64,000 bases of DNA from Microcoleus sp. (GTDB lineage: Bacteria > Cyanobacteriota > Cyanobacteriia > Cyanobacteriales > Microcoleaceae). The notes under the pieces are model-generated. The model was given only the letters and a program-made list of their open reading frames with translations, was not told the DNA's origin and ran no database searches. Positions 6,853 through 45,572 of this stretch are shown one piece after another (the first letter of the stretch is position 1; every line of letters begins with the position of its first letter). The stretch covers positions 640,001 through 704,000 of the forward strand of contig JAYFMW010000006.1 of NCBI GenBank assembly GCA_042408215.1, read 5' to 3'. The translations under genes and the position numbers were made by a program.

Positions 6853-10167
<3,315 letters not shown>

Positions 10168-10280
10168 TGAGATTTTTTTTTTGAACCACAGAGAACACAG
10201 AGAACACAGAGTCGGAGAAGAGAAGAGAGGGTTTTTTCGTAAAGGTTCTGGAAGTATTCCTGTTTGACTAAGGTGAGTTA

Positions 10281-10491
10281 CAGCAGTGTCAACTTAAGCC
10301 TAAAACCATTGATAAATATCGCTTTTAGCTAAGTCTCGATCCCCCTAAATCCCCCTTAAAAAGGGGGACTTGAAGACGTTTCCGGTTCCCCCCTTCTTAA
10401 GGGGGAGTAGGGGGCAAGAATGCGGGGGGATCTGGCGTTAATAGTCAAACAGCAGTCTGTGATTGGGTTTGACGTTAAGTTGACACCAATG
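10281..10491. mobile_element. MITE with GTGTCAACTTAA terminal inverted repeats carrying the CCCCCTTAAAAAGGGGG hairpin cassette
   Basis: TIRs 10286-10297 and 10475-10486; near-duplicated flank GAGTTACAG/GAGCTACAG; inverted sibling at 14371. Confidence 0.8.
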
Positions 10492-10565
10492 GAGCTACAG
10501 CGCACCCTACCTTTAGATTTTTGGTGTAATTGATGCACTCTTAAAAACTGCAACATTAACCGCAT

Positions 10566-13500: not shown

Positions 13501-13973
13501 CAGTCGCCGCCACGGCCAGTTAAGTTGGTGGATGCTGCCACATCTGCCCCGGTTAATTCAGCAATGCGATCGACAAAATTAGCGCCTGTCCCCGATGCTA
13601 CATCGCAGCCGTAAAGCATAATATCTGCTTTTTCCGACAGTCCATTATGCCACTTTTCCAACTGGCTTTTGTATTGTTCTATGTTATCTGAACTCAGAGA
13701 AGTGTTGCCGAGTTCTAGATTCCCTGAATTCCCGTGAGAAATGATGTGAACAGAATCGATCGCCCCGTTGGTAGAGGCATATTTTTCAATTTCTGAGGTG
13801 ATTTGTTCGATGCCGTTTTTTTGGCGATCCAGTACGATTACCTGCTGGCCTGGTAGCACTCCTGCCACAATGGACTCGTAGTCTTCCACCCCAGAGTCAA
13901 TGAAGACTAAGGAACGCGGGGGGAGTTTTTCAAGTAAAGATTGTGAGTTAACTTGAGCGAACGTAGCAGTCAT
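10566..13973 (-). CDS. DUF4347 / beta-helix / PT-PA linker / RTX protein, paralog of 6853-10167
   Basis: Same architecture; near-identical C-terminal secretion region. Confidence 0.88.
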
Positions 13974-17664: not shown

Positions 17665-18087
17665 GAGTAGTCAGAAACCGGGTTTTTTCCACAAGACTCA
17701 TTACAGACCGAAAACTGCGAAAAACCCGGTTTCTTTGGTTTACGAGTAATCAGAAACCGGGTTTTTTCCACAAGACTCATTACAGCACCCAAAACTGCGA
17801 AAAACCCGGTTTCTTTGGTTTACGAGTAATCAGAAACCGGGTTTTTTCCACAAGACTCATTACAGACCGAAAACTGCGAAAAACCCGGTTTCTTTGGTTT
17901 ACGAGTAATCAGAAACCGGGTTTTTTCCACAAGACTCATTACAGACCGAAAACTGCGAAAAACCCGGTTTCTTTGGTTTACGAGTAGTCAGAAACCGGGT
18001 TTTTTCCACAAGACTCATTACAGACCGAAAACTGCGAAAAACCCGGTTTCTTTGGTTTACGAGTAGTCAGAAACCGGGTTTTTACCA
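17665..18087. repeat. 79-bp tandem palindromic repeat (AGAAACCGGGTTTTT...AAAAACCCGGTTTCT), 5 copies plus a partial
   Basis: Near-identical units abutting the CRISPR trailer. Confidence 0.93.
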
Positions 18088-21000
18088 CATTCAATTAGTT
18101 TCCCCAACGAGTGGGGAGTACACAGACGATCGAGAAATATCTAGACGAAGCACAATTTAAGTTTCCATTCAATTAGTTTCCCCAACGAGTGGGGAGTTAA
18201 GACTTACACTGACAAAGATGCTAGTCATTTAATGTTTCCATTCAATTAGTTTCCCCAACGAGTGGGGAGTTTCGATCGCGCTGAGCCATAGTCATCGCCA
18301 ACCGCAGTCCAGTTTCCATTCAATTAGTTTCCCCAACGAGTGGGGAGCAAAGATATGATTCGCTATTTAGTCAGCGATAGGCGGTTTCCATTCAATTAGT
18401 TTCCCCAACGAGTGGGGAGCGACAGAACAAATAAGAGTTCCCAATTTGCACAACAGAAAAGTTTCCATTCAATTAGTTTCCCCAACGAGTGGGGAGCAAG
18501 CACATAACAGCCAAGGTAGCGCCCATAGGGTTGTTTCCATTCAATTAGTTTCCCCAACGAGTGGGGAGCGTCACAAGAGCTCAAGGTTATGACAACCTCG
18601 ACCTAGTTTCCATTCAATTAGTTTCCCCAACGAGTGGGGAGTTGTGGTATGTAGAGGCGGTAGCTGGACGTACTCGCAATCAATAGTTTCCATTCAATTA
18701 GTTTCCCCAACGAGTGGGGAGTAGTTATCTACGGAGGTGTGGAATGGCACCCTCGTTTCCATTCAATTAGTTTCCCCAACGAGTGGGGAGATATCGTTGG
18801 AAAATCTGGAAGAACCACCAGAACCAGACGGCGACGAACTAGACGTTTCCATTCAATTAGTTTCCCCAACGAGTGGGGAGCGAATTGCAGCCAGAAATGC
18901 AACTTGGCCCAACTGCAGGCAATGGAGTTTCCATTCAATTAGTTTCCCCAACGAGTGGGGAGTTCTGTAACGGTGAAGAAGACTTATACGTAAAGGCTAC
19001 AAGAAGGGTTTCCATTCAATTAGTTTCCCCAACGAGTGGGGAGGGGCGGTATGTATTGTCAGGCCTAGGCTTCCTTACTGACCTTGGTTTCCATTCAATT
19101 AGTTTCCCCAACGAGTGGGGAGCTTCCGCAAAACCCAATTTCGATTAAACACCCTAATTAGCTCGTTTCCATTCAATTAGTTTCCCCAACGAGTGGGGAG
19201 AGCACATCAGCAACCCCCGTAACTTGGTATAGCAACAACTACTGGGTTTCCATTCAATTAGTTTCCCCAACGAGTGGGGAGTCAACATACGCAACGAGCA
19301 GGGTGCCAAGCAAACCTATGTCTGTTTCCATTCAATTAGTTTCCCCAACGAGTGGGGAGACGGCCGTAAGATACGCTGATTTGTTGCTTCAAAAAATTAC
19401 AGAAGTTTCCATTCAATTAGTTTCCCCAACGAGTGGGGAGTTTTAATCCTCCCGTTCTTGTATCCCGATTCAGGATGTTTCCATTCAATTAGTTTCCCCA
19501 ACGAGTGGGGAGCAAGAATGCGACGGACGCTGGTGGGCATGGCTAGACGGTGGCATGTTTCCATTCAATTAGTTTCCCCAACGAGTGGGGAGCGCTGTCT
19601 ATCGTGTACAAAAGCGTGTAAAGTATCTAGTTTCCATTCAATTAGTTTCCCCAACGAGTGGGGAGGAATGAAGGACCTGATGGTAAGAAGAAGGATGGTA
19701 CTGTTTCCATTCAATTAGTTTCCCCAACGAGTGGGGAGTTGAGGTCAGTATCCACCCCATTCAGAGGGGCGGTACGTTTCCATTCAATTAGTTTCCCCAA
19801 CGAGTGGGGAGCCCATAGCTTAGTGAAGGCCGGCCCCAGCGAAGGTAAGTTTCCATTCAATTAGTTTCCCCAACGAGTGGGGAGGGGTGGGTACCTCGCT
19901 CAAGCCCATGGGTGCTACGGTTTCCATTCAATTAGTTTCCCCAACGAGTGGGGAGGTTGGGTACATGTAAGACACCACACAAACCCATGGTGAGCAAGTT
20001 TCCATTCAATTAGTTTCCCCAACGAGTGGGGAGCCTTCTTCGAGTCCTTCACTATCGCCCTACAAAATAAGGGTGTTTCCATTCAATTAGTTTCCCCAAC
20101 GAGTGGGGAGGAGTCTACCAATACCTTCTATAGAAGCACCATACACAGTGGTTTCCATTCAATTAGTTTCCCCAACGAGTGGGGAGATGGTTATCTTCTG
20201 AGGTTGGACAACAAGTAGAGGCAATGGGTTTCCATTCAATTAGTTTCCCCAACGAGTGGGGAGTGCCCGTAAGTCCGTGTCTCGCCGTACTCAATCCATT
20301 GTTTCCATTCAATTAGTTTCCCCAACGAGTGGGGAGCGCGTCAATACCAGTAAATGTATGGTATACACCCCTTATGTTTCCATTCAATTAGTTTCCCCAA
20401 CGAGTGGGGAGCACTCAGCTATATAGCGCTGTCTTCAAAGCAGCAGGCTTAGGTTTCCATTCAATTAGTTTCCCCAACGAGTGGGGAGAAGGAGTACCGC
20501 ATCTATGGCCCTGGGGAAGAGATGGTAGGTTTCCATTCAATTAGTTTCCCCAACGAGTGGGGAGCCAATAATCAAACTATCAGCACCACCATGAACGGTT
20601 TCCATTCAATTAGTTTCCCCAACGAGTGGGGAGCCAACCCTGATGCTCAGTGCAGCAACCACTTTCCGTTTCCATTCAATTAGTTTCCCCAACGAGTGGG
20701 GAGCTTGGATCAGATATCCGTGCTCCTCGCCGAGGAAGTAAAGTTTCCATTCAATTAGTTTCCCCAACGAGTGGGGAGTGTACAAATCGAAGATAGTGAC
20801 AACAAGGAAGGTTTCCATTCAATTAGTTTCCCCAACGAGTGGGGAGGTATTAAGACTGCGTTAATGGGGGAAAAGATTGTCGCAATTAGTTTCCATTCAA
20901 TTAGTTTCCCCAACGAGTGGGGAGGGAATGAATTAAAAGCGCTAACCGCACCCGTAGAGCCAGAGCGTTTCCATTCAATTAGTTTCCCCAACGAGTGGGG

Positions 21001-22762
21001 AGTATAGGAAAGCTAATAAATGGTCCCTATGCAGTAGTACGTTTCCATTCAATTAGTTTCCCCAACGAGTGGGGAGAAGATGACGGCAAGGCGTGGTCAC
21101 ACAGCACATACGCGTTTCCATTCAATTAGTTTCCCCAACGAGTGGGGAGAAGGCAAACCCCCACACCTCTAGCAAAGACAAGGGGTCTAGTTTCCATTCA
21201 ATTAGTTTCCCCAACGAGTGGGGAGGGCGGCTGCATTGCATGGATTCAATAACGTGGCCTTTGTCATCGAGGTTTCCATTCAATTAGTTTCCCCAACGAG
21301 TGGGGAGAGAATACCGAAATAACGACCGACATCCTGATACTAAAATTTCCATTCAATTAGTTTCCCCAACGAGTGGGGAGCCTTGTTAGTTAATGGCGCC
21401 ATTGAAGGTACCCAAGTGTATTTCCATTCAATTAGTTTCCCCAACGAGTGGGGAGGGTAACATTACCCGATGTAAGGGTATTAGTGGGAGATCCATCTAC
21501 TGTGCCAAATTTCCATTCAATTAGTTTCCCCAACGAGTGGGGAGTAAGAAGGTAATCAACAACAACCTAATCCCTGCTGCTATTGCAAAATTTCCATTCA
21601 ATTAGTTTCCCCAACGAGTGGGGAGTCTATCAACCCTTCATTCATTGAGACAGTCTCCCTAATTTCCATTCAATTAGTTTCCCCAACGAGTGGGGAGATC
21701 AAAGTAATCAATCATCATGGCTAACATATTCAATTTCCATTCAATTAGTTTCCCCAACGAGTGGGGAGTTGGCTGCTTCATCTGCCACTAACTCCGCAGC
21801 TAAAGCAGCATTTCCATTCAATTAGTTTCCCCAACGAGTGGGGAGGTAATCAATGGGGTAACGGTGCACGCTATCTGTGCTGCTAAATTTCCATTCAATT
21901 AGTTTCCCCAACGAGTGGGGAGTGACCTATGCAGACCTAACTAAGGTGGACCACACTGAAATTTCCATTCAATTAGTTTCCCCAACGAGTGGGGAGTGTC
22001 TCCAAGGCACGCCGTTGTACTCAAGTCTCTGCCGTTAATTTCCATTCAATTAGTTTCCCCAACGAGTGGGGAGTCTACACCCTCCTCGATACCAGTGCGG
22101 TGGGATATAAGGAATGCGATTTCCATTCAATTAGTTTCCCCAACGAGTGGGGAGGTCCATCGCTAACTTCCTGACCCCCGTAATGAAAGAGGGAGAATTT
22201 CCATTCAATTAGTTTCCCCAACGAGTGGGGAGGATAACATCGTAGATAAAGCCGCCCGTAAGGCTGAAGCTAAATTTCCATTCAATTAGTTTCCCCAACG
22301 AGTGGGGAGGATAATACCCCTGTACCAGTATCACAGTGGCTCTGTGGTAATTTCCATTCAATTAGTTTCCCCAACGAGTGGGGAGAGCAAGAAGAACGAC
22401 ACATGTCAAAGCTCCAAGAGGAAATTTCCATTCAATTAGTTTCCCCAACGAGTGGGGAGTTAACTTGACAGCTCGTTAATCGCTGAGGAGTTTTTCGCAT
22501 TTCCATTCAATTAGTTTCCCCAACGAGTGGGGAGTCTTGTTTTTTGTTTGTGTCCGAGGTGTTACCCTCATACAAATTTCCATTCAATTAGTTTCCCCAA
22601 CGAGTGGGGAGCACAATTGGGTGAGAATATCTCGTACACTCCCGAATTTCCATTCAATTAGTTTCCCCAACGAGTGGGGAGCCTAGGGTGGTGCCATAAC
22701 GATCTACACGGCAACAACATAGTCATATTTCCATTCAATTAGTTTCCCCAACGAGTGGGGAG
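18088..22762 (-). CRISPR. CRISPR array 1: about 62 repeats / 61 spacers; repeat CTCCCCACTCGTTGGGGAAACTAATTGAATGGAAAC (minus strand)
   Basis: Repeats counted manually; spacers about 32-54 nt; leader next to cas2 at the right end; trailer repeat truncated at 18088. Confidence 0.99.
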
Positions 22763-22949: not shown

Positions 22950-23231
22950 TTAGATAATCACCGACCCCGGCAACTCCGTGACAGGCGGGCCCACCCCCCA
23001 AGTCTGAACATTGCCCAAAGTATGCCCCGACACAGGATAGAACCTAATACTGTCCTCATCTAAATTGATTAACTTTCGGAGTCGCCGCTGGAGTTCTGCA
23101 AACTTCGCAGTTGGCAGCACACACTCAAAGGTAGAATATTGCACCCACTTGCCGTAACCTTTGAGTAAGTCATGCACCTTTTGTCTGCGCTTGTCAACCG
23201 GAATATCGTAGACAACGATATAAAGCAGCAT
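22950..23231 (-). CDS. cas2: CRISPR-associated endoribonuclease Cas2
   Basis: YIVVYDIPVDKRR, WVQYSTFEC, DSIRFYP. Confidence 0.97.
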   Translation of the reverse strand: MLLYIVVYDIPVDKRRQKVHDLLKGYGKWVQYSTFECVLPTAKFAELQRRLRKLINLDEDSIRFYPVSGHTLGNVQTWGVGPPVTELPGSVII

Positions 23232-23234
23232 ACT

Positions 23235-24233
23235 TTATCGAATTTGATAAGGTTGATAAAGCTCAAGAGGATTGTATACAAACTGCTTGAAAGCTTTCAC
23301 CTGCTGGTTAAGCAAATCCCATTTAGGTTGAGTGTCCCCGGAATTATTAGTAAAACCCTCTTCCATCCGTCGCAGAAAAGCTGTCAAAAATTTCTGTCGC
23401 CCAGAATCATTGAGAAAACAGCCACTATTTCGGAAAACAAAATCTTGGTCAGCTTTCATCATGCCGTTATTGACAAGATAAAAAACCAAACTATCAATAA
23501 TCGGTGCCCGAAATTCCTCAATCAAATCCGAAGCCAAAGCCGCATGGCGTTCCGTTCCCTGATGCAAACAAGCCGAATAAGGATCGAGCCCTTGCAACTC
23601 AATCAAACTCAACAAATGATTCCAGAGAACTTGATAGCCAAAACTGAGCATAGAATTAACCGGATTACCCGGAGGGCGGCGCGACCTACCCACAAACACA
23701 AAATCAGGATTGCTCAAACACTCTTCAAAAGCCGAAAAATACTGAGCCGCCCCCGCACCTTCCATCCCCATCAACTTCTCAATAGTTTCAGCCTCCCCAG
23801 CTTTTTTGATTAAATGTTCCAAACAGTTAATTGCAAAAGCAATGACATCAGAAGCTTGTCGGCGCTGCTGTCGCATGAGGATCACCCTGCTGTTTTTCAG
23901 CTTAGCCTGCACAATGCGTCTGGCTACTTGCAAACGTTCAGCAAAACACAACTGTTGCTGATAGCGAGAGAGTTGTCTGTAGCCCCGTTCGATAGGAAGA
24001 ATCCGCCCGTAACAGTAACCCATGCGGGAAAGATAAGCAATGGGAATATTCCGCCACAGACAAGTTCTAATTGCTTGAGTTGTGACTTGAGACTTACCAA
24101 AAATCAGCAGTTGTTCAAGCAAAGGAAGCTGTATTTCACCCAGCACAGATTCGCCTTTTTTGATAACCAACATTTCTTGGTGCAAGGAAACGTAACAACC
24201 AGGTTGAGAAACATAAACGGTACGCATAAGCAA
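23235..24233 (-). CDS. cas1: CRISPR integrase Cas1 (no RT fusion)
   Basis: MGMEGAGAAQYF, RSRRPPGNPVNSMLSFGY, ALASDLIEEFRAPIID. Confidence 0.98.
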   Translation of the reverse strand: MLMRTVYVSQPGCYVSLHQEMLVIKKGESVLGEIQLPLLEQLLIFGKSQVTTQAIRTCLWRNIPIAYLSRMGYCYGRILPIERGYRQLSRYQQQLCFAERLQVARRIVQAKLKNSRVILMRQQRRQASDVIAFAINCLEHLIKKAGEAETIEKLMGMEGAGAAQYFSAFEECLSNPDFVFVGRSRRPPGNPVNSMLSFGYQVLWNHLLSLIELQGLDPYSACLHQGTERHAALASDLIEEFRAPIIDSLVFYLVNNGMMKADQDFVFRNSGCFLNDSGRQKFLTAFLRRMEEGFTNNSGDTQPKWDLLNQQVKAFKQFVYNPLELYQPYQIR

Positions 24234-24239
24234 TTATTG

Positions 24240-24473
24240 GGTAATCAGAAACCGGGTTTTTCCGAAATACTTCGTCACACCACCTAAAAACCCATAAAAA
24301 CCCGGTTTCTTAGATTTTCGGGTAGCCAGAAACCGGGTTTTTGCGACAATACTCGTTACCGACGCAAAAACCCCGAAAAACCCGGTTTCTTAGACTTTGG
24401 AGTAGCCAGAAACCGGGTTTTTGCGAAAATACTCGTTACCGACGCAAAAACCCGGAAAAACCCGGTTTCTTAG
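24240..24473. repeat. Three units of the AGAAACCGGGTTTTT palindromic repeat family
   Basis: Same inverted ends as 17665 and 45087, with a different core. Confidence 0.85.
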
Positions 24474-24568
24474 ATTGTTGTGTGGGGGCGGGTTTATGTA
24501 GATGGTTGGTGGGTTTCAAATGTTATTGGTGAAACCCGCCCCTACAGCATTTGGATGGAGATATAAAA

Positions 24569-24853
24569 TTATTTCCGTTCTAAATTTTGCGAATCCCGTG
24601 GGAGAATTTGCGACGATTCCGGGGTATAATCTAAGGAATTTGGGATTTCTTTGGTGCGAGAAGGTTGGAGGTAGCGAACGATTTGGTCGGCGATGGTGGA
24701 TGCAAAAAAAGTGGCTAATGTGACTAGGAATGTGTTAGAAATTACCGCTGCTAATCCCAGGGGTGCGATGAGGAGAATGATGAGAGTGATGGTGCCGTTG
24801 ACGGCGGCTAGGGAGAAGTTGCGGATTGTGGAGGCGCGAGATGTGATGTACAT
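24569..24853 (-). CDS. csx18: CRISPR-associated membrane protein Csx18
   Basis: 94 aa, VNGTITLIILLIAPLGLAAVISNTFLV; upstream of cas1 as in cyanobacterial type III loci. Confidence 0.8.
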   Translation of the reverse strand: MYITSRASTIRNFSLAAVNGTITLIILLIAPLGLAAVISNTFLVTLATFFASTIADQIVRYLQPSRTKEIPNSLDYTPESSQILPRDSQNLERK

Positions 24854-24999: not shown

Positions 25000-26496
25000 T
25001 TATTTTTGCAGTTCGTAACGGGCGATCGCGTTCACCAATTCATCATGTACTTTCGCCATCAAACTAGCTGATTTTAACGAAACAAAGTTTTGCTTTGAAA
25101 CGAAATTTAAACAGCCCAAAACTCGCGATTCCCACTTTTCTTTACTATCTGTATTCCAAGCTTGGAATACATCTTTTCCCTCCAAACCATGCAAAGAATG
25201 AAAAGTCAAATTTCTTTCACCTATGGTATCGCCAGCAACTATTTGAATGTGAGGGTTTTGATTCCATTTATCTCGGTCAGATGCTTCAAGTAAAGTAAAT
25301 AGTGCTTTACCAAATAAGCCCACATTATTGTAATCGCGATTTTTATTTGCATTAAACCAATACCGTAAATTCTGAGGCAAATTTACATCATGGATATATG
25401 CTGTACTTGGTTGCTTGGCATTAGAGTATTTAATTTGTGGCTTATACTTGTATAATGCCCATTCTTTAATCAATCCTTCCACAGCCCGAAAACTGTGAAA
25501 TAGTGCCTCAACAGTGTTGTCTTGTTTTAAACGAATCACGCCTAAATAAGCAGCCTCATAACCCATCCACCACCACTCATTCAAACGCTCTTCTGCAACT
25601 TCTCCCCTAGCCTTACCAAAATCTTCAAACTTAGCAAAATTCCACTGTACCGCCATTCCTAACAAATCGCGAATTTCCACCAATAACGGATCTACAGAAT
25701 CTTTCCAGTAAGGTTTTAAAATGAGTTCAACTCCCTGGTAGTCATAGCGCTTTAATAACGCTTTCGCCTCTTGGACTAGCATCCCCTGCAAATAAGTAGA
25801 GCTTTCTATAAAATCACCCTTCTCTGCTAACTTTTCTTCATACTCATTGCTCACCAAAAACTTGACTTTATTACCAAACTTTGCTAAGCAATCAAATTGA
25901 ACAGCCGAAGAAATAGCTGGAGTTCCCGCCTGATGGCTAACATAGACATTTGCACTTTTATCAAACTCTAAACTAGACAAAGCTTGCTGAACCAGAAACA
26001 GTGCTTTATTCCAATTATCTAATCCCTCATTTTGGGATTTTGGTTTCAATTCTAAGTAATCAATTGATTTAACTTTAGGAAATTTTCTCTCAAAATATTT
26101 CTCAAATATCGGCTGAAGAGTGCAAGTATCCTGCCAATAGGGACTTTTTTCTATCCTCCTGTCTTGCTCATCAAAAACTGCTTCCTGATTAGTCAAAATC
26201 ACGATGATTCTGTCAGGATTTGTTCTGCCTTGTTCTAGCAGCTTGGCAGAAAAAGCATCCAACAGCGGAAAGTGCAAATCCTCATAATATTCATCTGTCA
26301 ACTGCGTTCCATAAACCATCCCCATCGCTCTCGCTGGTACGATAAAAGGTTCGCTATCATCAGTATTAGGCGGTTTTGTAGGTGCAAAACGGCGATCGTA
26401 TAATTGACTTCTCACCTTTCTAAACAAAGTCCCCCAATTGTCATCAGTTTTGAGCTTGACATCGCTGTTACCAGTAGTCACAATCCAGATATTCAT
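25000..26496 (-). CDS. Putative CARF-HEPN type III effector (Csm6/Csx1-like)
   Basis: Rossmann-like N-terminus (IVTTGNSD; VYVSHQAGTPAIS); C-terminal RNLTFH fits the HEPN RX4H motif. Confidence 0.7.
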   Translation of the reverse strand: MNIWIVTTGNSDVKLKTDDNWGTLFRKVRSQLYDRRFAPTKPPNTDDSEPFIVPARAMGMVYGTQLTDEYYEDLHFPLLDAFSAKLLEQGRTNPDRIIVILTNQEAVFDEQDRRIEKSPYWQDTCTLQPIFEKYFERKFPKVKSIDYLELKPKSQNEGLDNWNKALFLVQQALSSLEFDKSANVYVSHQAGTPAISSAVQFDCLAKFGNKVKFLVSNEYEEKLAEKGDFIESSTYLQGMLVQEAKALLKRYDYQGVELILKPYWKDSVDPLLVEIRDLLGMAVQWNFAKFEDFGKARGEVAEERLNEWWWMGYEAAYLGVIRLKQDNTVEALFHSFRAVEGLIKEWALYKYKPQIKYSNAKQPSTAYIHDVNLPQNLRYWFNANKNRDYNNVGLFGKALFTLLEASDRDKWNQNPHIQIVAGDTIGERNLTFHSLHGLEGKDVFQAWNTDSKEKWESRVLGCLNFVSKQNFVSLKSASLMAKVHDELVNAIARYELQK

Positions 26497-26498
26497 AA

Positions 26499-28250
26499 TT
26501 ATTCCTCAGTTGGCCAAAGTTTGATAAAGTCGCTCTGATTCTGTAAAAACTCAAGAAAATTCTGAGTTGTGTCCGAGTCATCAGGAAAAATCGTCAAAAG
26601 TTCTACATACTCTTGCCTTTTTTGTTTCAATTCTCCGGTTCTAAGTTTGAGATAGCGGGGATACATCCGATGCCAAATGCGACCAATATTATTGAGTTTT
26701 CCAGTCAAATCAGTTTGCTTAATAAACTGATTTTTTGAGTAGTGACCGTGAAACCAATTAATTGCTTCGCTGCTATTCTTATCCTCAGCAATTCTTCCCC
26801 AGACTTCCACTTTTTCTGGATGCCAGACTTCGCGCCAAGTAGTAGCATGATGACTCAGTTCTACATGATTAACTGTTAACCATTCTATTGCTCTCTGCTG
26901 ACCCTCTGCCAAAAATTTAGCAATATTTCTGAGGTCATCACTAGCAGCCGTGACGTACAAATCCTTTGAACTTTCATTAAACTTCCAGTGACAGCCGATC
27001 GCGGGTTTGTCATTTCTGTTAAAATACTCTGGGAAAAACAGGCTGTGATCGACTCGCCGCCACGATTTGCCAAAACCGCCGAGTAAGAGAGAAAATTTAA
27101 TTAAGTAAGTGACAAACTTTTTTAACTCCTTCTGGGGATAGGTATTATTCAGGCATAGCAAATCTAACTTGCCAGCTTGCAAGTCGTAGGTTGGCATCAC
27201 TACAACTTTGTTGCCGTTAGGCTTATATCTGTGTTCGCCAAAATCGAGTTCCTCAGCGGTAAAATTAATCCCCAACTGCCCGATAATTGCCCCTGTATCA
27301 TCGCGTCTTTCACCAATTCCTCCCCAAAGTTTCTTCGTTAACAGTTGCGCTGTATTAACATCCGTGACCCCAGCCAACAACCGTAAAGTATGACCCCGCA
27401 GGGCAGCTTTAAACATATTTGGTCGAAATTCTGGGGTTCTATTCAGCAGTTGGGACGTTAACCCGCAGCCGCTCAAATTGACAGAAAGTAAGATGCGATC
27501 GGCACTTTTTACCTCTGCCATGCGGCCGTAGCCTGCACTTACCCTAGAACCAATTCCGTGCCCTAAAGCTTGTTCCCAAATTTGCCAAATCTCCTCCCAT
27601 TCTTGTTTTCCAAGCTGCTTGTTGCTGGAAATGCCAAATTGTAATTGACACTGATAAAGCGAAATTTGCACGTTAGCACTGGTGACAGCATTTTCCATCA
27701 CTTGGCGTTTTTGTTGCGAGTGAACGACATCGACTAAACGCTCTTTTTCTGCCCAAGACATATCAGCAGGAAAGCCGCCGTGAAAGCGCAAAATTCCGGG
27801 TCTTGCACTACGCTGTCCGTCCTCTACAACCTCTCCTCCGCAGTATTCTTCTCGCTTTTGAGGAGGACACGATCGCCAGAAAGCGCCTTTCATGCTAGAA
27901 CCCGGATAAAATGGCAAACCTTTCGCACCAATTACGGGTCGAATTACGTCTTCATCTTGTCCGCTATTTGTAACCAAACGCCAGCTAATTGTGTATTGTT
28001 TTGTTTCCACTCCCCGGCCGAATTCAGGCATTTTCACGGGTGATTTAGTTCGGCCTCGCTGCCAGAGGGGAACGCTTTCATCATTGCTTTCGGGGACGGG
28101 AGGACAGGATTTTAACCACTGTTTCACCCAATCAGAAGCCGGGCCAGCATCGCCTGCATACTGAATTTTTCCTCTTCCAGCTAACTGTGCTTGAAACATC
28201 AAAGGAACGCGATCGCTATCACTCATCTTCTTCACCTCCATTATTGCCAT
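26499..28250 (-). CDS. cmr6: RAMP protein, Cmr6/Cmr1-type fusion
   Basis: PFYPGSSMKGAF, GIGSRVSAGYG; second RAMP FKAALRGH...LGGFGKSWRR. Confidence 0.85.
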   Translation of the reverse strand: MAIMEVKKMSDSDRVPLMFQAQLAGRGKIQYAGDAGPASDWVKQWLKSCPPVPESNDESVPLWQRGRTKSPVKMPEFGRGVETKQYTISWRLVTNSGQDEDVIRPVIGAKGLPFYPGSSMKGAFWRSCPPQKREEYCGGEVVEDGQRSARPGILRFHGGFPADMSWAEKERLVDVVHSQQKRQVMENAVTSANVQISLYQCQLQFGISSNKQLGKQEWEEIWQIWEQALGHGIGSRVSAGYGRMAEVKSADRILLSVNLSGCGLTSQLLNRTPEFRPNMFKAALRGHTLRLLAGVTDVNTAQLLTKKLWGGIGERRDDTGAIIGQLGINFTAEELDFGEHRYKPNGNKVVVMPTYDLQAGKLDLLCLNNTYPQKELKKFVTYLIKFSLLLGGFGKSWRRVDHSLFFPEYFNRNDKPAIGCHWKFNESSKDLYVTAASDDLRNIAKFLAEGQQRAIEWLTVNHVELSHHATTWREVWHPEKVEVWGRIAEDKNSSEAINWFHGHYSKNQFIKQTDLTGKLNNIGRIWHRMYPRYLKLRTGELKQKRQEYVELLTIFPDDSDTTQNFLEFLQNQSDFIKLWPTEE

Positions 28251-28647
28251 TATTCTTAGTAGGTTTATAACGCTGAGTCCACCAAACCATACTGTCGCAA
28301 AGTTGAGTTAGCACAGCTATAGCTACTTTGCGCTGTTCTACGGGAAAATCCCACAATTTATTTGCCATGATTTTAATGGCTGCTGTATCGTCAGGACTAA
28401 CATTATCGTTGGGAATTTTAACGCCAGCATTTGCCATAATTTTAACTAACGCCTTCCAAGTATCCCGCCAATAATCAGCTTGATCTTTGTCCTTGACTAA
28501 CCGAAACTGTTCTCCCCAAAATCGCTCTAAACCATAAGCAACCGAAACACGCATTTTGTATGCTTGATTAGGAGCATCTTTTTTGTCGCGGTATTTGATA
28601 ACTAAATCGTGAGCCTCTTGGTCTAATTTGTAAGATTCCCAAGCCAT
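28219..28647 (-). CDS. cmr5: Small subunit Cmr5 (Cas11)
   Basis: 142 aa helical protein between cmr4 and cmr6; AYGLERFWGE. Confidence 0.75.
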   Translation of the reverse strand: MAWESYKLDQEAHDLVIKYRDKKDAPNQAYKMRVSVAYGLERFWGEQFRLVKDKDQADYWRDTWKALVKIMANAGVKIPNDNVSPDDTAAIKIMANKLWDFPVEQRKVAIAVLTQLCDSMVWWTQRYKPTKNNGNNGGEEDE

Positions 28648-28650
28648 AAA

Positions 28651-29484
28651 TTATACCTCCTTTAAGGTTAGATAGCAGTGACCGAAACCTATTGATTCTA
28701 AACCGCCGAGATAAATGTCTGCACCACTAGCAGCACCAAAAGGTTGCCATGTCTCTTGGTTGTCTTTGAGGGCGATCGGAAATACTAAAATTGTGCCTTC
28801 TGGCAAAGCTTCAGTATTAAAAAAAGCTCCTTTTTTCGCCTTTTTTTCCTCTTTGTCTAAGGCTACTCGACTCTGGCGATATAAAGCCATATCGTGAATC
28901 ATGGCAATTTCATCATCAGCAACAACAACGGCTGGCAATTCCTCTCCTAAAGGAAACCAAACAGACAAATCCTGAGTTTTCTCAACTGTCAAAAAGCCAA
29001 AGTTAAAAAATAGCTTTGGTTTGCCATTTATGTCGAGAGCTTTTAAGGTTTGAGAACCTGTATAATTAGCGGGAATTTTTGCAGTATTGAGTAACTTACC
29101 ATCCTTTAGCTTGACAGAATCTCCAGCAATTCGCTGATAGCGTTTGAGCAAACGAGGACAAGTTACCCAGACAATTGGTTGACCGGGACAAAACACTGGC
29201 AACCATAGCAGCGAAGCATATTCAAACTTAACTACAGACTCCGTGGTACTGTCTGGTTTTCCTAATTCTGCTTCCTGACCGTACCATTTATTGGCTTCAG
29301 TTTCTCCCAGACTGCGGCGGATTTCCGATCGCAATCTCCCGCGAATCGAACTGCCGGGAATAATGCCAGTTTGGGTAAACTGGTCGCGGAAAATTAAGTT
29401 TAAGTTTCCGCTTTCTTCACCAGCCGTTGCTCCCACATGAACAGGAGCAAGGGTTTCAATAATACCGTAAGCTTTTTTGTACAT
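28651..29484 (-). CDS. cmr4: Cmr4 (Cas7-family backbone)
   Basis: LAPVHVGA, IPGSSIRGRLR, FNTEALPEGT, LGGLESIGFG. Confidence 0.92.
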   Translation of the reverse strand: MYKKAYGIIETLAPVHVGATAGEESGNLNLIFRDQFTQTGIIPGSSIRGRLRSEIRRSLGETEANKWYGQEAELGKPDSTTESVVKFEYASLLWLPVFCPGQPIVWVTCPRLLKRYQRIAGDSVKLKDGKLLNTAKIPANYTGSQTLKALDINGKPKLFFNFGFLTVEKTQDLSVWFPLGEELPAVVVADDEIAMIHDMALYRQSRVALDKEEKKAKKGAFFNTEALPEGTILVFPIALKDNQETWQPFGAASGADIYLGGLESIGFGHCYLTLKEV

Positions 29485-30479
29485 TATTCAACTCCTTGAA
29501 TTTCAATGGGTAAACACAAACCGCATCCAACTTGTTTCAGGCTAAAACCTTCTTTGGGAAACCAATCTTCAGGGAATTCCCACCAAGTTTTATCTAAAGG
29601 TTCTCTGAGAAGATAGACAGTTCCAGGCGAAACTGCATAGCGTCCCCGTCCCATTTGTCCTTTCGCGCGGTAGCGATAGGAAATGGGTTTATCTGTGAGC
29701 ATTTCCGGTCGTTTTTTCGAGAAATCTTCATTTTTGGGATAGCGGAATGAAAATTTTTTAGATCCCCAAATTCCCGGCGTAATTAAAGCAAAAGAACGCT
29801 GAATTGGTTGGCGTAAAAGTTTGGCGATCGGGCTGTTATCATCCAGTGGAAGACTCTTTATTTCAACCAAATGATTTTCGCCACCAAAGCGATACCAACC
29901 ATCTGCTAAAGGATGAGTTGAGAGATAAACCAGACAACATTCATCATCCATCTGCACGGAATTTTCCAGAAACAAACCATCTTCTGCTAAAGTGCAGCGT
30001 TCGTCATCTTTTGTTTTGGGATGCAAGATAGGGACGTATGTCCAAGGAGTATCAGCTGCATCGCCATTTTTCTTAATGGCAGCAGTCTTATTTCCCCAAG
30101 AATTAACGGTTTGCCAGCGATAATCTGGGTCTACATCATCAGATTCCCGATGCCACTTTCCTGTTTGTCTTTTCCATTCATCCACTCCTTTTTGAGAAAT
30201 AATTTTGTGCCAAGGAATGGGGACGTAAAAGTATTCAGGATCGTCTGATTTTGCCCAAAATGGACCAGCGACAAATAGGTTATATCTGAGTTCTTCTTGA
30301 GAAGTATAAGACCTAACTTTGTTGGCGCTGAAAAATAGACCGGAGAGAGTAGCGGCTTCTGGAGGGAATTTTGCCCCAGAACGTCCGACCAGATTTTCTG
30401 GCGATAAAAATCCGCCTGAACTGCCGTACATAAATCCTAAAGGACTTATAGTGATGAGATATTTGAACATAGCTGCCAT
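29484..30479 (-). CDS. cmr3: Cmr3 (Cas5-family)
   Basis: FPPEAATLSG, RFGGENH, ALITPGIW, AVSPGTVY, VGCG. Confidence 0.88.
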   Translation of the reverse strand: MAAMFKYLITISPLGFMYGSSGGFLSPENLVGRSGAKFPPEAATLSGLFFSANKVRSYTSQEELRYNLFVAGPFWAKSDDPEYFYVPIPWHKIISQKGVDEWKRQTGKWHRESDDVDPDYRWQTVNSWGNKTAAIKKNGDAADTPWTYVPILHPKTKDDERCTLAEDGLFLENSVQMDDECCLVYLSTHPLADGWYRFGGENHLVEIKSLPLDDNSPIAKLLRQPIQRSFALITPGIWGSKKFSFRYPKNEDFSKKRPEMLTDKPISYRYRAKGQMGRGRYAVSPGTVYLLREPLDKTWWEFPEDWFPKEGFSLKQVGCGLCLPIEIQGVE

Positions 30480-32062
30480 CCCACATTTATTAGGTCACTA
30501 ATCCAGTAAATAAGTTCATTAGTTGGTTCATTTGGAAAATCTCCAACGATATGCTTGCAGTTTTGTTCCAAATGCTCTCTGTCATTAAAGTAAAGTTGAA
30601 AAATAGTTAAAGCCAATCGGTCATCTGGCCTTTTTTCCTTGGGATTAAAGCTGATAGCATGACGATTTTTAAGATGAGCTAAATCGTTGTAAACATGAGT
30701 CCAATTAGGGAAAAGTTTTTTATCTTTCCCTTCTGATTCCCATTTACTATAGGTTTTACCATCGCGATCGCGATACCTCTTCAAAATATCTAGATAATCC
30801 CAAGGGCAAGTCCACTGCACAAATTGACCGCTGTTAAAGACTACTCGAATTGTGACTCTATTTCGCCCCAAACTTTTCGCCCGTTTTTCCGCTTCTCGAC
30901 AGTGTTGAAGAATATCTCGCTGCGGTACACTGTGACCAGCCCAAACAAAACCTACACTTAAATTAATATCCTGTCCGTGCTTTTTCCATTCATCGGACAA
31001 TTTCATTAACCATTCTAATGCCTCTATAGGTTCCGGCGGCTTTTCGGGCTTGGTACTGTAAATTACGCCGAGGAAATCGTCACCGCCTGCATAAACAACT
31101 CGCCCTAGGTCTTTGGGGAAATTCTTGATAAATTTACCGCCCCAATTCCGCATGGCTTCGCTGAAGTTTTTTAAACCTTCATCTCCTTTTTCTTTAGCAA
31201 TTTCCTGAAGTTTTTTGCCAACTTTATCACCATCTCCCATAAACCAGCCAGTCCAGTGTTCTGGTTCACGAATAATGTCGCTAAATGCTGATTCAAGCGG
31301 AGATATCCCAATGTTTCTGGCAATATCTTCGTCACGAGTTACCAATCGCTTAACTAACTCAGGAATGCTCAATCTTTCATTAGGTGCGAGAAATTTTCCT
31401 TCGGGTTTGCCATCTGGGGGAAGATTCTCTAAAACACAGGAGAGACGCTGATAGAAATCCTTAAGTTCAGCTTTTTCTGGATCGGATAGTTGCCGCCCTG
31501 GATTTGAATGTTCCAAACCTAAACCCGGCCAGGCGATCGCATCGGTGCCGGTCAAACTCGAACTGTCGCCAATCCAATTAATCGCCGTCCAATCGCGACG
31601 CAATTTGCGAGTCTCTAAATTCTTCATCGCACACTCTATGCAATCTCCGTGCCCCCAAAATATTTCCCAAGTGTACAAACCCCATCGCATCCACTCTTGC
31701 TGCCAAAAGTATTGCTCTTTAGGAGGTACTTCTCGTTCTATCCAAACTCGACATTCATTTAATATTTCTTGCCATGATTTCTGAAGGGTGTTCGTCACAT
31801 CATTCCTGGAAAATTCCCCTTCCCCTTTCAGAAGTATCCGATTGGGCATTCCTTTCTGGATGTTGGGGGAACCGGGAGAAATGACATTGAAACCTGATTT
31901 TTCGGCTTGCTTGACTAGCTTGTAACTCAGATAAGACAGAATTAGTGAAGCCCCAAATAAATCTCTGAGTTTACGAGATTTTTCAATAAAACCCTGGACG
32001 GGTGCAAAGGCGATCGCAGTATATGCAGACATAGATTCAATTTTAAAGCGGGCAGAGCCCAC
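30446..32062 (-). CDS. cas10: Cas10/Cmr2, short form lacking the HD nuclease (start likely 32032)
   Basis: PVQGFIEKSRKLRDLFGASLILS, MGDGDKVG, VVYAGGDDFLG. Confidence 0.95.
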   Translation of the reverse strand: MGSARFKIESMSAYTAIAFAPVQGFIEKSRKLRDLFGASLILSYLSYKLVKQAEKSGFNVISPGSPNIQKGMPNRILLKGEGEFSRNDVTNTLQKSWQEILNECRVWIEREVPPKEQYFWQQEWMRWGLYTWEIFWGHGDCIECAMKNLETRKLRRDWTAINWIGDSSSLTGTDAIAWPGLGLEHSNPGRQLSDPEKAELKDFYQRLSCVLENLPPDGKPEGKFLAPNERLSIPELVKRLVTRDEDIARNIGISPLESAFSDIIREPEHWTGWFMGDGDKVGKKLQEIAKEKGDEGLKNFSEAMRNWGGKFIKNFPKDLGRVVYAGGDDFLGVIYSTKPEKPPEPIEALEWLMKLSDEWKKHGQDINLSVGFVWAGHSVPQRDILQHCREAEKRAKSLGRNRVTIRVVFNSGQFVQWTCPWDYLDILKRYRDRDGKTYSKWESEGKDKKLFPNWTHVYNDLAHLKNRHAISFNPKEKRPDDRLALTIFQLYFNDREHLEQNCKHIVGDFPNEPTNELIYWISDLINVGWQLCSNISSL

Positions 32063-32283: not shown

Positions 32284-33462
32284 ATGGCAAAAAAACCAAC
32301 CCCTCACCCCTACGCCGATCGACTAACGTTCGATCGCATAATGCTCCTAATTGCCACATTAGTAAACCATCCCGGAATCGGACACTCCGACACCGAAACA
32401 TCCGACAGTAAATATCACGACGCTTTACTAGAAGTCAAATCTCAATTACAGAAAATTGCCGCCGAATTCAACATCGAATTCCCCGAAAACTATCCCGCAA
32501 CTCCCACAATTCGCAAAGACTTAGAAACTTTGCGCCACTACGGAATCCTCGACAAAAGAATGTATCGCTTCGGATATTATCTCGGTACCGGCGCAATGAC
32601 TCGCGAAGAACTACTTTTCGCATTTCAAGCAATAGCATCTCAAGCTAAATATCAAGGAAATCCCCAAGCCCGCAAAATTTGTGAAAAACTCACTAAACTG
32701 TTGCGCGGATTAGATATCGAACTCAAAGGCCAATTGTTTTATCCGGTTCGCGAACACCTGAATCGTGCGATTATTTACACCGATCCTGTCGAAATGCTCG
32801 ATCGCCAAGAATATCGGAATACCCTATTTCACAAATTAGAAACCGTAGAAACAGCCATAGTTCGAGGCCAGGCGATCGAACTTTACCGCGAAAAAGATTA
32901 TTATGGTAAAGGCAATGTCGGTTTCCGGCGAATCTGGCCTCTGCAACTGATTTATCACGATATCGCCTGGTACCTGATTTGCGAAAATTGCGAAAACGGA
33001 CATTTGACCGTAGAACGGGTGAATCGCTTTACCGACTACTGCGAAATTATCGATCCAGAGGGGCGTGGTTTAGCCCTACAGGAACAAAGTTTGAAAATAG
33101 CCCAAAAGTTGTTAAAAAACGGCTGGGGGCTGTTTTTGGGCAATCCAGAGCAACAGCAGGCAGAATTGGAAGGTACGCTGAAGTTGCAAAAAGTGAAGGT
33201 GCGATTTTTTCAGAAGGTAGTTGGATTTATTCTAGAGGGCGATCGGCGACATCCGCGACAAAAGATTAACGAAGGCCCAAAGGATAGTTTTGGCAATCTG
33301 CTATATGTGGATTATCAGATAGATTTGCCCGATCGCTCTTTGAACGAATTTAGTCTATGGGTTAACAAATATATGGAAAACGCCCAAGTGCTTTCCCCGC
33401 CGAGTTTGGTGGAAAAACACCGACAAGCAGCGAGAGATTTGTGCGATCGATATAGCTTGTAA
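32284..33462 (+). CDS. wHTH-WYL-WCX transcriptional regulator
   Basis: TIRKDLETLRHYG (HTH), IWPLQLIYHDIAWYL...ERVNRF, AQVLSPPSLVE. Confidence 0.93.
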   Translation: MAKKPTPHPYADRLTFDRIMLLIATLVNHPGIGHSDTETSDSKYHDALLEVKSQLQKIAAEFNIEFPENYPATPTIRKDLETLRHYGILDKRMYRFGYYLGTGAMTREELLFAFQAIASQAKYQGNPQARKICEKLTKLLRGLDIELKGQLFYPVREHLNRAIIYTDPVEMLDRQEYRNTLFHKLETVETAIVRGQAIELYREKDYYGKGNVGFRRIWPLQLIYHDIAWYLICENCENGHLTVERVNRFTDYCEIIDPEGRGLALQEQSLKIAQKLLKNGWGLFLGNPEQQQAELEGTLKLQKVKVRFFQKVVGFILEGDRRHPRQKINEGPKDSFGNLLYVDYQIDLPDRSLNEFSLWVNKYMENAQVLSPPSLVEKHRQAARDLCDRYSL

Positions 33463-33469
33463 ATTCTCC

Positions 33470-33655
33470 TAGGGGCGGGTTTCATCAATCATGGTTCGAC
33501 TACGCTCACCAACCATAAAAGCTTAAAACCAACCATCTCAAAAACCCGCCCCCACCGGGCGAAAAAATCACCATCCAAATTCCCCAAATTATCCTAGGGC
33601 GGGTTACACAAACCATCTACGTCAGAAACCAACAACATAATAAACCCGCCCCCAC
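33470..33655. repeat. REP-like palindromes (TAGGGGCGGGTTT...AAACCCGCCCC), two copies
   Basis: Family recurs at about 24481, 48725, 59423-59700 and 63614-63768. Confidence 0.8.
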
Positions 33656-33676
33656 ATACTGAGAATTGTTATATTT

Positions 33677-33701
33677 AGCCCCGATTATGGGGCTTTTTTT
33701 T
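33677..33701 (+). terminator. Intrinsic terminator downstream of WYL
   Basis: AGCCCC-gattat-GGGGCT followed by a T-run. Confidence 0.75.
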
Positions 33702-33840
33702 GTGCTTGTTAATTCTTCGCAACTAGGATTGGTTGCAGAAATTTGAGTTGTAAAAGTTGGTCTTTGGAGTTTTCCAGAGGTTGAAAAGTTAGAGCTTTTG
33801 GCACAAAAGAAGGCTCTGATTTTTTAATTTCTGTTTGCGG

Positions 33841-34034
33841 TGTCGGGGGGATCGAAGCCTCCTTCGATTCCGCATTAATAGAAGACTTCGAAAAGCTTTG
33901 TCTTAGCTATGTATTTCTAGCAAGTGACAAGCTAACTTGCTAGACAGTGCCGTAACCCTTCGGCTGGGGGATAGGACGATGCCTTAAAGACGTTTACTCT
34001 ATGCGGTAGAGGCGTCCCCTAAAGGCATCCCCCC
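33841..34034 (-). ncRNA. Putative structured ncRNA of about 190 nt, family not recognised
   Basis: Promoter immediately upstream, multiple hairpins, complementary ends, no ORF of 60 aa or more. Confidence 0.6.
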
Positions 34035-34040
34035 AAAATT

Positions 34041-34069
34041 AGACTACTAGAAATCTAGTCTTTTGTCAA
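34041..34069 (-). promoter_or_regulatory. sigma70-type promoter TTGACA-N17-TAGTCT with an internal palindrome
   Basis: -35 at 34064-34069, -10 at 34041-34046; ACTAG-ATTT-CTAGT overlaps the spacer. Confidence 0.75.
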
Positions 34070-34134
34070 GAGCTATTTATGGTTGCTCTTAAACTGTCGC
34101 ATTAATAGAAGACTTCCACTAATTTTGTTTTAGC

Positions 34135-36267
<2,133 letters not shown>

Positions 36268-45011: not shown

Positions 45012-45086
45012 TAGGCCCTAGGCCCTATATCAAGCGTGCACCGCACTGTTACCGAGAAAGGCTATTTGTGCTAAATGAAACTTTAC

Positions 45087-45572
45087 GAATAGTCAGAAAC
45101 CGGGTTTTTGCAGAGAAGACACGTTACACCTCGTAGAAACTGCTAAAAACCCGGTTATGAAGGTTTACGAGTAGTCAGAAACCGGGTTTTTGCAGAGAAG
45201 ACACGTTACACCTCGTAGAAACTGCTAAAAACCCGGTTATGAAGGTTTACGAGTAGTCAGAAACCGGGTTTTTGCAGAGAAGACACGTTACACCTCGTAG
45301 AAACTGCTAAAAACCCGGTTATGAAGGTTTACGAGTAGTCAGAAACCGGGTTTTTGCAGAGAAGACACGTTACACCTCGTAGAAACTGCTAAAAACCCGG
45401 TTATGAAACTTTACGAGTAGTCAGAAACCGGGTTTTTGCAGAGAAGACACGTTACACCTCGTAGAAACTGCTAAAAACCCGGTTATGAAGGTTTACGAGT
45501 AGTCAGAAACCGGGTTTTTTACCGAGATACTGCATTAGAGCCTTTAACTAAAGTAAAAAACCCGGTTTCTTT
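45087..45572. repeat. 82-bp tandem palindromic repeat, 5 copies plus one divergent unit
   Basis: GAGTAGTCAGAAACCGGGTTTTT...AAAAACCCGGTT units. Confidence 0.93.

Follow-up and report, generated by a model that had tools for sequence, protein, structure and literature searches.

Why does the last spacer of a CRISPR array recur, in the same sense, inside a neighbouring non-coding RNA (ncRNA)? The question arises from a locus of Microcoleus sp. (contig JAYFMW010000006.1, positions 640,001 to 704,000). This whole stretch of 64,000 nucleotides is called the window, and coordinates without a locus label are those of the window. An earlier note on this DNA had linked the trailer spacer of array 2 to the ncRNA by an exact 19-nt repeat. 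Comparison with homologous sequences indicates that the repeat belongs to a real crRNA-ncRNA module, conserved and co-evolving in type III systems of cyanobacteria, whose structured ncRNA is new.

The trailer spacer and its internal copy

The 19-mer CGCATTAATAGAAGACTTC was found at 33871-33889 and 34098-34116, as the earlier note had it, and there was no third copy in the 7.36-Mb genome. When the region 33461-34134 was shuffled (n = 60), the longest exact direct repeat was 7-11 nt, as against the 19 nt observed. The extent of the shared segment had been undercounted in that note. The 19-mer makes up the seed half of a longer match, 37 nt with 31/37 identities (33871-33907 and 34098-34134), which spans the whole trailer spacer (the guide) up to the repeat boundary. 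The 3′ flank of the internal copy, UAUGU in the plus-strand reading, is not complementary to the tag.

Array 2 is read on the minus strand: leader-like sequence lies at its right, and in homologues degenerate repeats lie leftward. The transcribed repeat ends in GAAAC, which we take as a sign of this direction. The trailer spacer is the oldest spacer of this RNA-targeting type III-B array. Unlike the conserved trailer spacer, the next spacer (34171-34216) was absent from the fetched loci of other genomes. Since no other fetched locus shares it, the conservation of the trailer spacer is not ordinary trailer inheritance. Among the other spacers of both arrays, 6/87 had partial genomic matches of 16-21 nt, none of full length.

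Recognisable repeats stand at the place of the probable terminal remnant (Table 1), on the far side of the module, in L039, L043 and L081-L084. Thus, with repeats on both sides in these loci, the module lies within the trailer end of the array. In L043 (5590-5630) and L081-L083 (1415-1460), a further conserved spacer is located between two degenerate repeats left of the module; it is possibly another regulatory guide.

In the effector operon of the window, cas10 has GGDD and csx1 encodes a CARF-HEPN protein with RNLTFH (RxxxxH motif). In array 1 (21345-22762), the 19 leader-proximal repeats start with ATTTCC and the older ones with GTTTCC, the ATTTCC variant being a repeat mutation propagated from the leader end. 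Related tandem repeats of 79-82 nt with an internal inverted repeat occur at 17665-18089, 24239-24476 and 45075-45519; one of these abuts the trailer end of array 1 and one is between cas1 and csx18.

Table 1. Features of the CRISPR locus and the putative ncRNA module in the window.
Feature	Coordinates	Strand	Remark
csx18, cas1, cas2	22950..24853	-	no reverse transcriptase domain match
Type III-B effector operon: cas10, cmr3, cmr4, cmr5, cmr6, csx1	25000..32062	-	
WYL-domain regulator	32284..33462	+	placement relative to module differs among homologues
Intrinsic terminator	33677..33701	+	against plus-strand read-through into module
Probable terminal CRISPR repeat remnant	33703..33735	-	repeats at same place in homologues
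Predicted ncRNA, ~290 nt, unannotated	33745..34034	-	3′ end approximate
Helix a:c, 33764-33774 with 33881-33891	33764..33891	+	stable on plus strand only
Long hairpin	33775..33833	+	G.U-rich on plus strand in window
Helix b:c, 33851-33862 with 33881-33892	33851..33892	-	stable on minus strand only
Internal copy S′	33871..33907	+	crRNA target when read on plus strand
5′ hairpin, loop CCGCA 34006-34002	33978..34034	-	predicted kissing partner of UGCGG 33874-33870
Sigma70-type ncRNA promoter	34041..34069	-	TTGACA 34069-34064, 17 nt, TAGTCT 34046-34041
Trailer spacer S, guide	34098..34134	-	kept across families
CRISPR array 2, 28 repeats	34135..36267	-	repeat 34135-34170 gives guide's 5′ handle

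Co-variation of guide and internal copy

One check proposed in the earlier note was a comparison of the two copies across homologous loci, and the copies were found to change together. Both copies carry GAAAGCTCCAAC in L034, ATTAACAG in L036, TGTGTTGGC in L038 and ATTCGTATAAG in L043. In L081, a one-base insertion is common to guide and internal copy. The match is kept in L084 despite an insertion separating the guide from the promoter. G235 and G747 have a guide unrelated to that of the window, yet it is duplicated in the same architecture, and where the two diverge from one another, the same base is changed in guide and internal copy. The shared segment also co-varies with its partners a and b inside the locus. 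As judged from these alignments, complementarity of the guide to one site in the conserved ncRNA locus is maintained, and the two form a co-evolving pair.

No empty-site allele was found among 144 genomes of the family. The promoter-to-repeat distance varies from 48 to 224 nt across homologues (224 nt in L084 against 48-68 nt). Since the copies co-vary and no empty site was seen, the alternative of a target duplication or an att pair, which the earlier note had kept, is rejected. Its claim that the trailer crRNA has a segment of guide type in common with a same-sense ncRNA agrees with the co-varying copies and with the minus-strand promoter.

Mismatch pattern of the guide-target pairs

Numbered from the repeat, the mismatches in the window are at positions 6, 12, 13 (G.U), 15, 16 and 18. 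We collected 26 distinct guide/target pairs, a set that leaves out L082 and L083, which the pattern missed. Of the 35 distinct mismatch states, 16 fell at multiples of six (p 6e-5; phase counts 16, 4, 4, 5, 2 and 4), a statistic in which related pairs are not independent. When only positions 1-34 were counted, as positions 35-36 may fall outside the mature guide, the value was 12/29 (p 4.5e-4), and it became 13/36 (p 1.2e-3) when two pairs of family f2, counted by hand, were added. With one pair per clade (8 clades), 14/26 states were in phase. Family f2 alone showed a weak phase, with 1/7 new mismatch states at multiples of six.

No mismatch was found in segment 7-11 in any of the 26 pairs. 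In segment 13-17, mismatches occurred 24 times, and four pairs (L034, L043, L081 and L084) have their bulges there. Segment 19-34 was mostly intact: the 3′ seed at 19-23 had 6 mismatch occurrences, and positions 25-29 had 2, together with a deletion at 25 in three loci and one bulge after 23. Positions 1-5 and 7-11 were fully paired, with G.U counted, in 20/26 pairs including the window. True mismatches at positions 1-3 were present in 6/26 pairs of several lineages. In f2, mismatches near the repeat were at 1 and 3 in G235 and at 1, 2 and 3 in G747.

In TtCmr, according to PMC8376896, every sixth base is unpaired, positions 19-23 are the seed, positions 1-11 govern cyclic oligoadenylate (cOA) synthesis and positions 13-17 are of little weight; mismatches at 1-3 cut the cOA output and spare cleavage. 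Of the properties of a Cmr crRNA-target duplex, freedom at every sixth base was found here, weakly in f2, and so was 3′ seed pairing. The phase suggests that, against the complementary strand, the spacer serves as a genuine guide for Cmr, and the mismatch pattern looks as expected for a duplex inside the Cmr (Cas7) backbone. The earlier note missed this phase. Since gene conversion yields no six-base phase, conversion cannot explain the pattern.

Strand and structure of the ncRNA

A leftward promoter of the form TTGACA-17/18-(T/C)AnnnT was present in 13/13 lineage representatives, and a similar minus-strand promoter is visible in f2. The support for the promoter in the window is this conservation, as a generic promoter scan did not call TTGACA-17-TAGTCT. 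Because of the leftward promoter, the minus strand is most likely the one expressed as ncRNA, same-sense with the crRNA, and its start is predicted at ~34034. The loops CCGCA of the 5′ hairpin and UGCGG of helix b:c are both exchanged in G235 and G747, for ACGC and GCGU, and a kissing interaction between the two loops is probable.

Helices a:c and b:c mask the same 12 nt, which correspond to guide positions 16-27. Helix b:c, which hides these positions in the ncRNA, had 25 minus-only G.U cells and 0 plus-only cells among 156. In helix a:c, which masks the seed site for Cmr on the complementary RNA, 31 plus-only and 1 minus-only G.U cells were counted among 143. The a:c partners were found with a strand-specific score, yet at homologous offsets; 95% of the cells were paired, 0/500 shuffles were as high and slid controls reached at most 68%, which is not to be read as a probability. 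The complement of the ncRNA therewith has its own conserved helix in most clades, and the plus strand, to judge from the alignments, is also under selection in families f1, f19 and f45. In f2, the long hairpin is present with a different sequence.

Left of the element, plus-strand terminators were found in 6/12 rows and minus-strand ones in 0/12; the L043 row, for which a wrong repeat had been picked, was taken out of the pairing analysis and kept in this count. No plus-strand promoter was found, and TAAAAG at 33751-33756 is conserved but is not a consensus -10 box. We had initially read the ncRNA on the plus strand, where the window folds better (z -6.6 vs -2.9). This reading was given up: the consensus folds tie (-32.9 vs -32.2), the minus strand carries the promoter and the kissing loops, and it is by far the better-folding strand in G235 (z -7.3 vs -3.0 on the plus strand). 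Contigs assembled from RNA runs X1, X2 and X6 cover the element and a 119-nt contig of X8 covers guide and repeat, without usable depth or strand information.

Rfam gave no family above the gathering threshold for the ncRNA locus, the only matches being sub-threshold terminators and hairpins. No conserved ORF was seen in the ncRNA when homologues were compared. An Arg-rich minus-strand ORF from 33875 was considered as a gene and dismissed, since its frame is lost in homologues (read by eye). Between cas10 and the module, both f2 loci contain a promoter-like TTGACA site on the plus strand, with a terminator-like hairpin following within ~80 nt (L133:1301-1385, L170:1203-1300); judged by eye, it is perhaps a small RNA or a left-over WYL promoter.

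Distribution of the module

With a sequence-only model, the module was detected in 22/143 other genomes of the family, namely 19/78 in genus g1 (one of them counted on the guide end alone, beside an N gap) and 3/12 in g14. BLAST and model searches of 401 sampled genomes added five genomes of f19 and one of f45. Family f2 contributed two genomes with the module (G235 and G747) and one truncated remnant. By these similarities, the module recurs in four cyanobacterial families. Named records that carry it are Microcoleus species and Phormidium pseudopriestleyi. In a metagenome pattern search, 16/23 matches were homologues and 7 were discarded; 1/16 matches among named records and 1/1 in another search were also discarded as non-homologues.

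The element has its own repeat and guide within 330 nt in 36 of 38 distinct copies, and the remaining two are tandem copies beside a complete one. Tandem duplications occur in G049 and G110 (L012:918-1984 and L015): the first copy lacks a repeat and its guide is truncated, and the second is complete. In G054, G125 and G131, orphan modules consisting of one repeat, guide and ncRNA lie among housekeeping genes far from cas, and Cmr genes are present elsewhere in the genome. G812 (L171:1440-1560) contains a remnant, the left half only, which is cut inside the target, lacks promoter and guide, and adjoins arrays of another repeat family.

All 19 g1 carriers have a type III operon (17 detected via Cmr4 and 2 via RAMP and Cas10 profiles); Cmr4 was found in 35/78 g1 genomes overall. 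Most type III-B carriers are without the module. Cas10 GGDD was intact in 6/6 homologous operons read, in addition to that of the window, and CARF-HEPN genes adjoin the module loci tested. In G607 (L109:1366-9086), a type III-B remnant with Cas10, Cmr3 and a CorA-like effector was seen, with a second CARF-HEPN gene across the module from it.

Independent guide in G131

In G131, 5 nt are deleted from the guide repeat of the module itself. This genome possesses a second type III array (25 repeats of a different repeat family) next to a GGDD Cas10. The trailer spacer of this array (L164:8710-8745, C47) matches the internal site at 35/36 positions, the exception being a G.U pair. It has the same polarity and includes flank bases missing from the old guide. 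The sequences indicate that the source of this spacer was the internal copy and not the old guide. Since it sits in another array, conversion between neighbouring copies cannot account for the match; it is a single case. Among the other spacers of the array, 1/24 has 17 nt in common with a gene that lies 2.6 kb away from the module, which we took as chance.

Search for other targets

The earlier note had suggested common targeting, sponging or promoter autoregulation, and our results support none of the three. When the guide was compared with the genome, the internal copy scored 27.5/30 and the best other site 22.5. A search for host RNAs that could pair with either strand gave none (best E 0.35), and no foreign protospacer appeared in IMG/VR (a chance match only), 50,697 phage records or 72,556 plasmids. 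As for sponging, pairing of the guide gave -39.6 kcal/mol with the complementary strand vs -17.9 kcal/mol with the same-sense RNA. As for autoregulation, 127-163 nt separate the internal copy from the predicted start upstream of it, and Cmr targets RNA. A 42-nt match of 86% to ycf3 of G363 was dismissed as chance, as ycf3 of the present genome is unmatched.

Comparison with known systems

In cis-encoded sense/antisense pairs such as type I toxin-antitoxin systems, both strands are structured, one promoter is strong and loop motifs are present. The module shares these features; it differs in its third component, a CRISPR guide, and in that no conserved peptide ORF was seen. Retron msr-msd, TnpB omega RNA and the template repeat of diversity-generating retroelements (DGR) are structured ncRNAs with an internal guide- or template-like segment. 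The module likewise has an internal guide-like segment, and one half folds better as the complement. We dismissed a retron or DGR, as no RT gene stands beside the annotated loci and the RT matches of G000 look like group II intron RTs; unlike in DGRs, the mismatches are not adenine-biased. An origin from TnpB omega RNA, which the ncRNA resembles, was also set aside: no TnpB gene stands beside the annotated loci, and nhmmer gave no match in the 35 TnpB 3′ regions tested (of 150).

CreTA is a CRISPR-regulated RNA toxin-antitoxin of type I-B and other systems (PMC9458426, PMC12737573), and we compare it here as described in these papers. In both cases an all-RNA module is located at a CRISPR locus, the guide is partly matched to a neighbouring RNA gene, and persistence as a single repeat and guide is possible. 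In contrast to CreTA, the effector here is of type III, the guide follows a normal array repeat and is not between degenerate ectopic repeats, and the match is inside the transcribed region (33871-33907), not in the promoter (34041-34069). Moreover, there is no constant PAM (ATA, GTA, GTC, GGA, TAA and GTG were seen), the linked effector is Cmr, the mismatch pattern is that of a 3′ seed, and the predicted target is the complementary RNA. The module is not a CreTA member as delimited in these sources, since it has neither ectopic degenerate repeats nor a promoter target, nor a PAM with a DNA-binding effector.

A self-matching guide near cas genes is also known from CreR and regulatory mini-arrays (10.1101/2023.03.03.530964). 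This survey describes the type III mini-arrays as having no conserved positions or targets and as likely degraded, whereas position, target and co-variation are conserved here and the target is not a cas promoter. For CRISPR3 of Synechocystis, type III-Bv, mature guides of 42/48 nt with handles of 13-14 nt are reported in PMC12464536. These lengths leave at most ~35 nt of spacer, which matches the length of the match here, and the observed phase would fit a six-base register with such handles. That locus is likewise a Cas6-less Cmr locus with csx18, and maturation by RNase E/J is plausible; in what is accessible of the paper, no such ncRNA or self-guide is described. We found no description of the module in the literature, mostly openly readable, and the supplements of the survey could list such loci.

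Possible function

It is established that Cmr pairs with RNA complementary to its guide. Since guide and ncRNA are same-sense, the target must be a plus-strand RNA. The conservation described above marks the trailer spacer, at the sequence level, as a selected self-targeting guide. The trailer crRNA would be processed from the array end and loaded into the Cmr complex, and this step, the guide in Cmr, is by itself highly probable. Cmr would then bind and cut the plus-strand RNA, the complement of the promoter-driven ncRNA, and keep it from accumulating. Candidate sources of this RNA are a weak promoter near TAAAAG, read-through, or copying of the ncRNA. Once Cmr is lost or inhibited, the sense/antisense pair might harm or arrest the cell, and the module would act like CreTA, as an addiction device and a guard against anti-CRISPRs, through RNA cleavage and not promoter repression.

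We favor this whole addiction reading, an RNA-level counterpart of CreTA, tentatively, and would not yet call it probable. The guide is retained in every complete copy, survives in the orphan modules and is replaced in G131, and a type III operon is present in each of the 19 g1 carriers. In addition, the mismatches at 1-3 (6/26 pairs and both f2 genomes) are of the kind that spares cleavage but lowers cOA in TtCmr. Against it, the target RNA is hypothetical, with no plus-strand promoter and a frequent terminator; Cmr cannot target the minus strand, which is the strongly promoted RNA with the kissing loops; no complementary host RNA was found; the f2 plus strand folds weakly and f2 shows little phase; co-occurrence with Cmr is largely physical linkage; and the module is absent from most type III-B carriers. 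Constant targeting would also be costly, since positions 1-11 are paired in 20/26 pairs, the flank is non-self and GGDD is intact.

In a rival reading, the plus-strand RNA would normally be absent, through the terminator and an excess of antisense ncRNA, and infection would produce it, by antitermination, host shut-off or copying of the ncRNA by an invader polymerase. Cmr would then bind it, and cOA made by Cas10 would lead to dormancy through Csx1, with no phage-specific spacer needed. This tripwire is a lesser but serious possibility: the addiction reading is ahead, and the two remain close. The paired seed and Cas10-activating segments (20/26 pairs), a flank never tag-complementary at position -2, the GGDD and CARF-HEPN genes in the operons examined, the terminator insulating the plus strand (6/12 rows) and the tolerance of a near-perfect self spacer in G131 are all in line with it. 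Helix a:c, however, hides the seed site in the plus-strand RNA, and mismatches within 1-3 in f2, and at 1 or 2 in 6/26 other pairs, are of a kind that strongly reduces cOA in TtCmr. The ncRNA may instead be a domesticated template, made constantly from its own promoter, whose complement arises not from DNA but when a host or invader polymerase copies the RNA, which we consider rather unlikely. Each strand's helix would hide the same 12 nt, in the way that replicating RNAs avoid re-annealing, and the terminator would keep the DNA-templated plus strand away; Cmr would either cap the amplification, making the cell dependent on Cmr, or read the copy as an alarm for foreign RNA-templated synthesis.

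That the crRNA and the ncRNA segment are both guides against a common foreign RNA is improbable. Two guides tracking one target would also differ at every sixth position, and the G131 spacer, acquired from the invader in this case, carries two flank bases beyond the old guide; but IMG/VR, phage records and plasmids gave no match, the segment co-varies with partners a and b, and no repeat handle precedes the internal copy. Slightly less credible still is a neutral relic, that is, an old duplication, a target-site duplication or a self spacer homogenised by gene conversion. The shared 1-nt insertion of L081 is easiest to obtain by copying, and the copies are ~230 nt apart. This reading is largely refuted by the six-base phase, the lack of an empty site, the conservation of promoter and helices over four families and the independent spacer in another array. 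Type I Cascade requires the repeat-proximal end and a PAM, which is GTN for type I-D. A type I-D Cascade that borrows the crRNA and blocks ncRNA transcription at the internal copy, as in CreTA, would suit the minus-strand 5′ flank of that copy, GTA, GTC or GTG in most clades including f2, and Csc2 was found in 4/5 carriers tested. We hold it very improbable, since the flank is ATA in the window and GGA or TAA elsewhere, G110, a single-contig genome of 99% completeness with two module copies, gave no Csc2 match, the repeat family belongs to the Cmr locus, and the type III pattern is seen, with PAM-proximal positions 1-3 mismatched in f2 and distal positions 19-34 best kept. The lowest rating goes to a sponge or conformational switch in which the crRNA displaces helix b:c in the same-sense ncRNA. 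Guide positions 16-27 are complementary to arm b, but this pairing has ~12 bp only, is far weaker than that with the complement, and leaves the identity and phase over positions 1-15 unexplained.

In the accessible literature, CRISPR-guarded RNA modules have so far been described for DNA-binding effectors. What is new here is that an RNA-cutting type III system has a guide and a target which are conserved and co-evolve, and this suggests an inbuilt RNA switch by which the cell is bound to a functional immune system. From the pair, cuts every 6 nt in 33871-33907, dependence on cmr4 and tuning of cOA by mismatches at positions 1 and 2 are predicted. If this holds, it would show how loss of type III systems may be prevented, or how they may be protected from anti-CRISPRs; alternatively, type III systems would possess an innate alarm independent of acquired spacers.

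Other observations

The G000 genome contains 150 matches to TnpB-type zinc ribbons, a type I-D Csc2 on C26, further type III operons on C20 and C30, and on C20 a 5-repeat array of the same family without the module. In the window, a serine recombinase related to XisF (below the cut-off) is located at 5454-6734. Two paralogous secreted-type proteins of ~1100 aa are encoded at 6853-13973, with calcium-binding repeats, a choice-of-anchor Q domain and PT-rich linkers.
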